Positions 61,021 through 64,000 of a stretch of 64,000 nt of DNA are shown here, piece after piece. The number at the start of each line of letters is the position of its first letter. Position 1 is the stretch's first letter. The stretch comes from Candidatus Nealsonbacteria bacterium. GTDB taxonomy: Bacteria; Patescibacteriota; Minisyncoccia; Minisyncoccales; JAGMDC01. The position numbers and the translations under genes are program-made. The notes beneath the pieces are model-generated. The model saw only the letters and a program-made list of their open reading frames with translations. It did no database searches and had not been told where the DNA came from. Location of the stretch: NCBI GenBank assembly GCA_030612885.1, contig JAUWMZ010000005.1:19-64018 (forward strand), given 5' to 3'.

Positions 61021-64000
61021 ATGTTAGTTGATTTCCATAACTTAGAAAAAAAGATTATAAAATTCTGGAAAGAGAACAGAATTTTTGAAAAATCAATTGA
61101 GAGACGCAAAAAAGCGCCTGATTTTGTTTTTTACGAGGGACCGCCTACGGCTAACGGCAGGCCTGGTATACACCATCTTGAAGCAAGAGCGTTTAAAGAT
61201 ATAATTTGCCGTTATAAGACAATGAATGGTTTTAAGGTAATGAGAAAATCTGGCTGGGATACGCATGGTTTGCCAGTTGAGTTAGAGATTGAAAAAAAAT
61301 TAGGATTTAAAGACAAGAAAGATATTGAAAAATTCGGCGTAGCAAAGTTTAATCAAGAGTGTAAAAACTCTGTCTGGCAGTATAAAAAAGATTGGGAAGA
61401 TTTAACAGAAAAAATTGGGTATTGGCTGGATATGAATAATCCTTATATTACTTACGAAACCAATTATATTGAGACAGTTTGGTGGCTTTTAAAACAGGCT
61501 TGGCAGAAAAAACTTTTATATCAAGATTATAAAGTAGTTCCTTATTGTCCGAGATGTGGAACATCATTGTCCTCTCACGAAGTAGCCCAAGGATACAAAA
61601 AAGTCAAAGAAAATTCAATTTATGTAAAGTTTCCTATTAAAGAACAGGAAAATACTTATTTCTTGGTATGGACAACTACGCCTTGGACTTTGCCAGGTAA
61701 TGTGGCCATCGCAGTAAATTTGAAATTTACTTATGTCAAACTAAAAATTGATAATGAATATCTGATTTTAGCCAAACAGAGAATCAAGGATTGTGGGATA
61801 GAAGGAAAAATTGTGAAAGAGTTTAATGGAAAAGATTTGGTTGGGTTGGAGTATAAGCAGTTATATAAAACTAAAGTTAAGGAAGCCAGATTTCCCGATG
61901 CTTATAAAATAATTCCAGGTGATTTTGTTTCCTTAGAAGAAGGAACAGGATTAGTGCATATTGCTCCAGCTTTTGGTGAGGATGATATGAATGTTGGCAA
62001 GGAGAACAATCTTCCTGTTTTAATAGCGGTAGATAAACAAGGCAAAATGAAAACGCCAGGATATAAGTGGAATAATTTGTTTGTGAAAAAAGCTGACACA
62101 CTAATTATTGAAGATTTAAAAAAAAGAAAGCTGTTTTTCAAAGAAGAACTATATGAACATGACTATCCTTTTTGCTGGAGATGTAAAACACCTCTAATTT
62201 ACTATTCTAAGAAAAGTTGGTTTATTAAAATGACAGAAGTTAAAAAAGATTTGATTAAAAATAACGAAAAAATAAACTGGGTTCCCAAACATTTGAAACA
62301 AGGCAGGTTTGGCGAGTGGCTAAGGGAGTTAAGAGATTGGACTATATCTCGAGAAAGATATTGGGGCACACCATTGCCTATCTGGAGATGTAAAAAATGC
62401 GGTCATCAAGAATGTATTGGTTCAAAAGAAGATATATTGAAGCAAAAATTTACTACTAATAAATATTTTATTTTAAGACATGGAGAATCAGAATGTTTTA
62501 AAAAGCATATTCTTTCTTATAAAAATAAAGGAGCTGGCTGCCCTTTAACTGAAAAAGGCAGGGAGCAGATTAAAAAAGCAGCGCAAGAATTAAAAAAAGA
62601 AAAAATAGATTTAATTTTCTCTTCTGATTTTTTAAGAACTAAGCAAACAGCAGAAATTGTTTCAAAAGAAATAGGAAAGAAAGTAAAATATGATAAACGT
62701 TTGATAGAAGTAAACATTGGTGTTTTTGATGGTGAAAATATTAAAGAGTACCGTAGATTATTTGAAGGGAAAATAGATAAATTTAACAAAAGGCCGCCTA
62801 AAGGAGAAAGTTACACAGATGTTAAAAAGCGAATTTACGATTTTCTGAAAGAAGTAGATAAAGAATACAAGAATAAGAATATTTTAATTGTGAGTCATGG
62901 CGGTCCGATTTTAATGGCGGAAAGCATTGTTAGAGGATTTTCTCGAGAAGAAATTGTAGAGCACTGGAAAGATAAAAGAATAAATGTTGGAGAATTAAGG
63001 AGATTGGAATTTAAGCTTTTTCCTTACAATAGAGAAAATCAAGAATTGGATTTTCATAAACCATATATTGATGAAATAAAATTTAAATGTTCCAAGTGTA
63101 ATAATTTAATGGAGCGAGTTCCAGAAGTGATTGATTGTTGGTTTGATTCTGGAGCAATGCCGTTTGCCCAGTATCATTATCCTTTTGAGCAAGAAAAATT
63201 TAAAAATCAATTTCCAGCTGATTATATTTGCGAAGCAATTGATCAAACAAGAGGCTGGTTCTATACTTTATTGGCAATCTCAACTTTATTAGATTTTGGC
63301 GTTCCTTACAAAAATGTTATTTCTTTGGGCCATGTTTTAGATGAAAAAGGAGAAAAAATGTCTAAATCAAAAGGAAATGTAGTTGATCCCTGGTATATTA
63401 TTGAAAAATACAGTTCAGATGCTGCTCGCTGGTATTTTTACACCATAAATCAACCTGGTGATTCAAAACTTTTTACAGAAAAAGATGTAGATAATGCATT
63501 AAAGAAATTTATTCTTACTTATTATAATATATATACCTTTTTTGAAACATATGTTCCAAAAGAAAACTCAAAGCTCAAAGCGCAAAATGCAAAGCCGCAA
63601 CGCAAAGCTCAAAACTTGTTAGATAGATGGATAATTTCCAGATTAAATGAATTGATTTCAGGGGTTTCTGAAAAGATAGATAAATATGATATTGTTTCAG
63701 CTGCCAGAGATATAGAGGATTTTGTTATTAATGATTTATCTCTATGGTATGTGAGAAGATCCAGAAAAAGATTTCAGAACCCTAAAACAAAAAAAGATTT
63801 TCAAGAGGCATCACAAACCTTGAGGTTTGTTCTTCTTAGCTTAGCTAAGTTGACAGCTCCGTTTGTTCCATTTATTTCCGAGGAAATATACCAAAATCTT
63901 TCGAAAAATAAATCTGTTCATTTAGAGGATTGGCCCAAACCAGATAAAAAATTCACAGATAAAAAATTAGAAGAAAAAATGAAATTGGTGCGCGAGATTG
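61021..64000 (+). CDS. ileS: Isoleucine--tRNA ligase (type 2), 3'-partial, with an inserted histidine-phosphatase domain
   Basis: Frame 1 is open from ATG 61021 to the window edge. [12 protein letters not shown] (HIGH), [57 protein letters not shown], KMSKS (aa 779-783). Not in the ORF track because there is no stop inside the window. Confidence 0.9.
   Translation, partial: [993 protein letters not shown]

Follow-up and report, generated by a model that had tools for sequence, protein, structure and literature searches.

Few enzymes are as well studied as the aminoacyl-tRNA synthetases, and the domains added to these synthetases usually serve editing, tRNA binding, or signaling. The CP1 editing domain is itself a precedent for an extra enzyme domain in a synthetase, and the curated family NF040702 (isoleucine--tRNA ligase, N-acetyltransferase domain-containing) is a precedent within isoleucyl-tRNA synthetase (IleRS), although the domain added there is a GNAT domain and not a phosphatase. 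Type 2 IleRS (IleRS2) has G/AXHH as a variant of the class I motif HXGH, and the swapped form confers hyper-resistance to mupirocin (PMC10485003). In the CP3 subdomain, whose topology varies from one IleRS to another, the Thermus enzyme has a zinc motif, as described with the structure of the Candida enzyme (PMC7191050). Here, we describe an IleRS2 gene (ileS) at the end of a 64,000-nucleotide stretch of contig JAUWMZ010000005.1 from Candidatus Nealsonbacteria bacterium (hereafter, the window), in which a complete histidine phosphatase (HP) domain is inserted into CP3. No report of a class Ia synthetase with an internal phosphatase was found in our searches of the literature on IleRS, valyl-tRNA synthetase (ValRS), aminoacyl-tRNA synthetases in general, or the candidate phyla radiation (CPR)/Patescibacteria, and a phosphatase is not mentioned in a 2026 preprint that surveyed the architectures of 96,219 IleRS sequences. 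Such proteins are public under generic labels, for example, "class I tRNA ligase family protein."

The ileS gene encodes a type 2 IleRS with an in-frame insertion

The ileS frame starts at position 61021 on the plus strand, 2 nt past the argS stop codon, and is open for 993 codons to the end of the window. The full-length protein has 1,161 amino acids, as taken from the 100% identical protein P0121, which additionally contains PF19302 and PF08264, the type 2 C terminus. A first reading made from the DNA letters without database searches (the sequence-only reading) had assigned the frame to a type 2 IleRS. Indeed, the protein scored 925.7 bits with the ileS equivalog model TIGR00392 (cutoff, 621.4), with the match lying in two stretches that flank the insert, and the Pfam match to tRNA-synt_1 (E = 5e-120) was also divided into two halves around it. 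In the alignment with the IleRS of Thermus thermophilus (1ILE), residues 4 to 472 corresponded to residues 9 to 476 and residues 676 to 991 to residues 488 to 806, leaving 203 residues where the Thermus enzyme has about 11, between the CxxC pairs of CP3.

The part upstream of the insert (residues 1 to 472) comprises the first Rossmann half, the CP core, the CP1 editing domain, CP2, and the start of CP3. A first zinc site is present in the CP core (CPRC, residues 176 to 179; CWRC, residues 385 to 388), and the CP1 editing motif TTTPWT is found at residues 218 to 223; the fragment structures 1WK8 and 1UE0 aligned to residues 191 to 383. The class I signature GIHH, aligned with HVGH of 1ILE, and KMSKS at residues 779 to 783 are those of IleRS2, and among the fused proteins, G49, H51, and H52 show a conservation of at least 90%. 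The enzyme also has the other hallmarks of IleRS2, i.e., the CP1 editing domain and type 2 C-terminal domains without a C-terminal zinc-binding domain.

The sequence-only reading had placed the insert in frame between "two zinc knuckles" of an otherwise intact synthetase. The uninterrupted frame and the 1ILE alignment confirmed the position between two CxxC pairs. These pairs (CKKC, residues 457 to 460; CSKC, residues 690 to 693) are, however, not separate knuckles but the two halves of a single CP3 zinc site, whose counterparts in the Thermus enzyme are C461/C464 and C502/C504 (1ILE; PMC7191050). The second pair is preceded by DFHKPYID (residues 677 to 684), and DCWFDSG and KMSKS follow normally, so that synthetase motifs are seen on both sides of the insert; a motif check located every motif quoted in the sequence-only reading at the residues given there. 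The four CP3 cysteines and KMSKS were invariant among 119 aligned fused proteins, and the first CP3 CxxC was kept in 46 of 46 IleRSs of the inserted type and in 23 or 24 of 24 IleRSs that are accompanied by a free phosphatase (see below). The catalytic, editing, and zinc motifs of the synthetase are all kept in the fused IleRS.

The insert is a complete branch 1 histidine phosphatase domain

The inserted segment consists of the HP domain and a conserved C-terminal linker. His_Phos_1 (PF00300) was detected in the whole protein with 129.8 bits (E = 1.3e-37; cutoff, 21.7), and a search with only the 195 residues delimited in the sequence-only reading (residues 478 to 672) again gave a very strong match (E = 5.8e-39; 134.2 bits). 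That reading had recognized a complete branch 1 histidine phosphatase with both catalytic histidines, and the catalytic set was indeed present: R486-H487-G488 (nucleotides [nt] 62476 to 62484), R539, E563, and H626 (nt 62896 to 62898), in the motifs RHGE (residues 486 to 489), FLRTKQTA (residues 537 to 544), RLIEVN (residues 560 to 565), and SHGG (residues 625 to 628). The counterpart of H487 in the alignment with PspA was His9, which is mutated in entry 4IJ6. In 119 fused and 20 free sequences, with a domain identity of about 47 to 50%, R486, H487, R539, and H626 were invariant and E/D563 was conserved.

When modeled alone with AlphaFold2, the domain folded with a predicted local distance difference test score (pLDDT) of 94.1 and a predicted TM-score (pTM) of 0.90. 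The full-length model had a pLDDT of 84.9 and a pTM of 0.77, with values of about 85 to 95 in the insert and 89 to 93 at the junctions. Foldseek matched the domain model with a probability of 1.00 and TM-scores of 0.75 to 0.82 to 4IJ6, 6S2Q, 9MMH, 4QIH, and 1H2E. The structural matches, which were 22 to 27% identical, include PspA, Rv2419c, the riboflavin-pathway HFP, CobC, PhoE, and TIGAR; PspA is a phosphoserine phosphatase and Rv2419c a glucosyl-3-phosphoglycerate phosphatase. Since the models are confident in the insert and at both of its junctions, they suggest that the insert folds as a domain of its own that is mounted rigidly on CP3.

The family of the insert is thus clear, but its sequence scores below the cutoffs of every named equivalog. 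This holds for dPGM (NF038349, 105.7 versus 225 bits; TIGR01258, 36.4 versus 81.7 bits; other gpmA models, at most 50 versus at least 300 bits), CobC (TIGR03162, 104.4 versus 162.9 bits), PspA (NF045917, 88 versus 350 bits), SixA (TIGR00249, 38.9 versus 74.5 bits), and GpmB. RHGxSxWN and ERHYG, which we take to be the signatures of dPGM, are absent from the insert. The protein is also not an IleRS of the GNAT type, since it reached only 299 bits with NF040702 (cutoff, 1,999) and Pfam showed no GNAT domain. An assignment as an anti-phage defense component was rejected as well: with the PADLOC defense profiles, the insert gave only a chance-level match of 14 bits and the free copy P0014 gave none.

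The nucleophilic histidine, both arginines, the acidic Glu/Asp, and the second histidine are kept in nearly every copy of the domain. This is the pattern expected of a working enzyme, and the HP domain is, to judge from these residues, probably an active phosphomonoesterase. The same pattern argues against a regulatory or structural module, which the sequence-only reading had suggested and in which the domain would be a ligand sensor (for example, for a phosphorylated metabolite that reports the energy state), a scaffold, or a tRNA-binding surface, with turnover unimportant. The rigid attachment predicted at CP3 would suit such a module, as would the very basic character of the inserted and free HP domains, which have a median isoelectric point (pI) of 9.8 to 9.9 and a net charge of about +18 per approximately 195 amino acids. 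However, the median pI of the background proteome is 9.46; since the proteome is nearly as basic as the HP domains, their charge is uninformative on RNA binding. We consider a module of this kind improbable.

The insertion is genuine and widespread

A chimeric assembly, an intein, or a transposed element could also place a foreign domain inside a synthetase gene, and the sequence-only reading had named a junction artifact as one way in which it might fail. However, P0121, the identical protein, is encoded on a different contig (8.5 kb), and P0122 ("Candidatus Parcubacteria bacterium"), which is 88% identical, is encoded on a contig of 330 kb. PF00300 was found in 120 of the 120 best IleRS homologues (60 to 100% identity; NCBI, JGI, ENA, and Logan), i.e., in the identical protein and 119 further full-length homologues, and in each of them, the same flanks enclose 202 to 228 residues. 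The sequences at the junctions are conserved, and independent assemblies have these junctions in common. The frame is uninterrupted, the G+C content of the insert (0.29 to 0.31) equals that of its flanks, and no repeats were found at the insert borders. Pfam detected only His_Phos_1 in the insert and no Hint/intein, endonuclease, or transposase domain, so that an intein or mobile element was rejected. An artifact or a mobile insertion is therefore hardly conceivable.

The source names of the homologues include Nealsonbacteria, Pacebacteria, and Paceibacterota. When one genome per species was scanned, relatives of the domain were detected in 465 GTDB species. The best 80 of the loci of these species were classified as fused or free, and in 52 of the 80 the domain is inside ileS, including the complete genomes CP179887.1 and AP024682.1. 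After clustering of representatives at 50% identity, 392 clusters matched the subfamily profile with an E value of at most 1e-30. Another refuting outcome named in the sequence-only reading, an equivalent domain in typical type 2 enzymes, was not seen in the IleRSs of Thermus (1ILE), Priestia megaterium (8C8U), yeast, and Candida. The domain insertion is genuine, old, and widespread, and the fused design is the usual one across a large Parcubacteria/Paceibacteria group and not a one-off event.

Two irregular forms were seen among the fused loci. In L045 and L011, the inserted-type IleRS has the first CxxC half-knuckle replaced by other sequence (around IleRS residues 440 to 480), and in L072 (4430 to 8001), the fused ileS is divided into two overlapping open reading frames (ORFs), by a frameshift or a true split.

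The phosphatase is fused to IleRS or, in nearly all other loci, encoded directly upstream of ileS

The closest free relatives of the inserted domain are His_Phos_1 proteins of about 190 amino acids that are 45 to 54% identical across the whole domain. In 27 of the 28 free-type GTDB loci, the free gene (hp) is located between argS and ileS, directly upstream of the latter. We measured 29 free loci, namely, these 27 and two found earlier. The gap between hp and the ileS start had a median of 4 nt, and several of the genes overlapped by 4 nt. As judged by tblastn, argS is upstream of ileS in most related loci of the fused and the free class, including 29 of the 29 free loci. The gene order is thus argS-hp-ileS in the free type versus argS-ileS::hp in the window, and the interval between argS and ileS is 564 to 730 nt in most free-type loci versus mostly 1 to 140 nt in fused loci. 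In L052 and L001, the adjacency of hp and ileS is kept where that of argS is broken. The neighborhood PolX ... SmpB - argS - ileS is common to the window and the free-type loci, and the free-type IleRSs keep the four cysteines with a CP3 loop of only 25 to 34 residues. No locus with both the free and the inserted form, or with two copies, was found among the loci examined, and no second HP copy was found in the 64-kb window. Such an alternation between a free and a fused form is a classic pattern and implies that the phosphatase goes together with IleRS.

The sole free copy among the 80 GTDB loci that does not adjoin ileS is located at 720 to 1283 in L019. By eye, its neighbors are a metK fragment before it, a glycerate kinase-like gene two genes on, and iorAB-like genes after it.

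A single clean insertion event was rejected, since the inserted and free types interleave in neighbor-joining (NJ) trees of IleRS and of the HP domain. The trees were calculated from p-distances, that of IleRS over 885 columns with the insert removed, and are too weak to decide the number and direction of events. A clean split of inserted and free types appeared in 0 of 100 bootstrap replicates. L023 (free) fell within an inserted clade with 91% support, and L022 and L070 (inserted) fell within a free clade with 96% support. Moreover, the HP of L023 shares 78% identity with its counterpart in a distant free lineage, which points to recombination or transfer. Despite the interleaved trees, all inserted forms have the same borders and a related linker.

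Tandem copies, second sites, and insertions in ValRS

In four IleRSs (P0340, P0295, P0339, and P0362), two HP domains are found in tandem in CP3, and free two-domain phosphatases also occur (P0274 and P0369). In the divergent IleRSs P0275 and P0373, a single CP3 copy is joined by another HP in the first loop of the anticodon-binding domain (equivalent to residues 845 to 866 of the window IleRS); P0275 (L086, 1932 to 6191) is 39% identical to the window IleRS and lacks the zinc cysteines. R-H-(G/A)...R...H was kept in every complete copy, tandem ones included. The conserved glutamate was missing in two copies, and some positions of two partial copies were not scorable. The first and second HP domains look like different subtypes (THADP type versus RHGETDW type).

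The domain is not confined to IleRS. P0241 is a ValRS fragment with four HP domains, and a search with it yielded an HP domain in 69 of 119 listed full-length ValRSs (from the range P0389 to P0506, e.g., P0389, P0391, and P0395) with the names Gracilibacteria or Peregrinibacteria. The homologous CP3 site, which lies between WCISRQ..IPVW and DTWFSS, is occupied in 62 of the 119, and 8 of these 62 have two or three tandem HP domains there. In 8 of the 69, an HP is found at the CP1/CP2 boundary instead of or in addition to CP3. The insertions in ValRS also appear to be undescribed.

A possible role of the phosphatase

On balance, we lean toward the HP being an active phosphatase partner of IleRS that acts on a nucleotide-type or small phosphorylated compound. 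The domain, a PhoE/PspA-like HP that sits on the tip of the CP3 zinc knuckle in a GXHH-type IleRS2, would be a dedicated partner, present as an independent subunit in some lineages and built into the synthetase in others. About 12 residues separate the end of CP3 from the DCWFDSG active-site strand, so that the HP would be held near the entrance of the synthetic site. It would dephosphorylate a nucleotide-type compound or a small phosphorylated one that the synthetase makes or binds, and its chemistry would rather not be a step of central metabolism. Hydrolysis of a phosphorylated metabolite or nucleotide had been suggested in the sequence-only reading. A more specific proposal, in which the HP takes part in the class Ia aminoacylation of CPR bacteria and provides a new, putative repair or immunity activity that resides on the synthetase, we regard as unlikely. 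Putative examples would be the clearing of a 3'-(pyro)phosphate from the CCA end of tRNA or the reversal of toxin-kinase phosphorylation of the serine in the KMSKS loop, and the activity would be delivered either by a subunit translationally coupled to ileS or by CP3 insertion in IleRS and ValRS.

Several observations weigh against a dedicated partner of IleRS and speak instead for a housekeeping phosphatase that hitch-hiked into the synthetase. In that case, an adjacent gene for an enzyme with a phosphoserine-, sugar phosphate-, or phosphoglycerate-type substrate would have been captured by local rearrangement into a permissive CP3 loop, unlinked to aminoacylation, and would have been retained since a fusion guarantees coexpression in a drift-prone minimal genome. 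The nearest relatives in sequence and structure are all small-molecule metabolic phosphatases, with no nucleic acid or protein phosphatase among them, and the free copy of L019 is located away from ileS amid metabolic-looking genes. No free HP was found beside valS in the two loci with an HP-less ValRS that were checked (L089 and L090), and the ValRS of the window (35871 to 38000) has no HP domain; class Ia enzymes in general, therefore, do not need the domain. The tandem copies, with all catalytic residues, resemble an increase in dosage and, like the use of alternative insertion sites, speak against one exact geometry. Furthermore, the topology of CP3 varies among IleRSs (PMC7191050), and the subdomain is therefore probably tolerant of insertions. 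Finally, adjacent genes in small genomes may stay adjacent without a functional link.

On the other hand, a merely permissive loop should gather varied domains, but both IleRS and ValRS have always taken up the HP family, across different lineages and at as many as three sites. In addition, 27 of the 28 free copies are within a few nucleotides of ileS across about 50% IleRS identity, even where the linkage to argS is lost, and the conserved linker and the high pLDDT at the junctions suggest fixed docking and not a floppy tether. The scores below the curated cutoffs of every named metabolic equivalog also do not favor a housekeeping enzyme. Hitch-hiking is, in our view, less likely but a serious alternative, and we prefer the active partner of IleRS.

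In many CPR species, IleRS has a second, apparently active catalytic center of a different chemistry within its catalytic body, and the alternation of free and fused forms is a natural "Rosetta stone" that points to a physical partnership. If the HP acts on the tRNA end, the synthetase, or its product, this would be a new translation quality control or defense. If it is only a hitch-hiker, the locus would be a clean case of neighboring genes turning into domain insertions in minimal genomes. Annotation should recognize the fused IleRS, which is now labeled generically.

Features of the window

The features of the argS-ileS region are listed in Table 1. Just upstream of argS and directly beside smpB is a tmRNA gene (58181 to 59200, minus strand) with the predicted tag EWPHCSNLAPAYV*. 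A tRNA-Ile gene with the anticodon TAT (UAU) is located at 21505 to 21581 (minus strand). To our knowledge, a UAU tRNA-Ile is rare in bacteria, which usually decode AUA by a CAU tRNA modified to lysidine; the UAU tRNA may fit the eukaryote/archaea-like type 2 IleRS. The valS gene of the window (35871 to 38000, plus strand) encodes a protein of 709 amino acids (979 bits) in which the Anticodon_1 match stops at the protein end, and by its sequence this ValRS seems to be without the usual C-terminal coiled coil. It is followed by murE at 38478. A GH38 alpha-mannosidase-like protein of 848 amino acids is encoded at 17076 to 19622 (plus strand), in what is apparently a small-genome Parcubacteria-type organism.

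Table 1. Positions of argS, ileS, and the parts of the encoded IleRS in the window
Feature	Position (nt)	Strand	Basis or remark
argS, ArgRS, 544 aa	59384..61018	+	ORF; conserved upstream neighbor of ileS
ileS, type 2 IleRS with phosphatase insert	61021..64000	+	TIGR00392; cut by the window end at codon 993
IleRS N-terminal part, aa 1-472	61021..62436	+	Pfam, 1ILE alignment, homologue conservation, motif check
Class I signature GIHH, aa 49-52	61165..61176	+	Aligned with HVGH of Thermus IleRS
First CxxC half of the CP3 zinc knuckle, C457/C460	62389..62400	+	Invariant in 119 fused homologues
Inserted segment, aa 473-675, 203 residues	62437..63045	+	Gap versus 1ILE; 202-228 aa in 120 homologues
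His_Phos_1 (PF00300), aa 483-637	62467..62931	+	Pfam
Linker, consensus FKxLPYNE, aa 663-675	63007..63045	+	In inserted domains, missing from free phosphatases
Second CxxC half of the CP3 zinc knuckle, C690/C693	63088..63099	+	1ILE alignment, conservation
DCWFDSG (aa 705-711) to KMSKS (aa 779-783)	63133..63369	+	Motif check, 1ILE alignment, conservation
Anticodon_1 start, aa 868-993	63619..64000	+	Pfam; cut by the window end

Comparison with known systems

Over its visible length, the synthetase is collinear with the IleRS2 of T. thermophilus (1ILE, 884 bits) and P. megaterium (8C8U to 8C9D, about 815 bits). It shares with IleRS2 the two zinc sites of the Thermus enzyme, the CP1 editing domain, KMSKS, the type 2 C terminus (in P0121), and the GXHH variant of the signature; the difference is the enzyme domain in CP3.

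The domain itself has the fold and the R-H-G...R...E...H set of the small branch 1 phosphatases PspA (4IJ5), PhoE (1H2E and 1EBB), the glucosyl-3-phosphoglycerate phosphatase (GpgP) Rv2419c (4QIH), HFP (9MMH), CobC (6NRU and 6E4B), and TIGAR, but it shares only 22 to 27% identity with them and is embedded in another enzyme. Branch 1 HPs fused to enzymes of nucleic acids or nucleotides are known from the mycobacterial RNase H/acid phosphatase (NF005567; Rv2228c/RnhC type) and the Nudix-HP protein MutT1 (NF052459). These are, however, end-to-end fusions and not insertions into a catalytic body, and the scores with the two models were 97 versus 326 and 19 versus 475, respectively.

The free HP proteins encoded between argS and ileS (P0014 in L003 and P0111 in L001) share the subfamily motifs, the catalytic residues, and the neighborhood with the insert. 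They differ in being separate polypeptides of about 190 amino acids without FKxLPYNE, next to a cognate IleRS with a short CP3 loop of 25 to 34 residues. In the ValRS of Gracilibacteria and Peregrinibacteria, a sister class Ia enzyme, domains of the same family occupy the homologous position in CP3, sometimes in tandem; the synthetase and the CPR lineages are different, however, and the phosphatase domains are about 31 to 33% identical to that of the IleRS.

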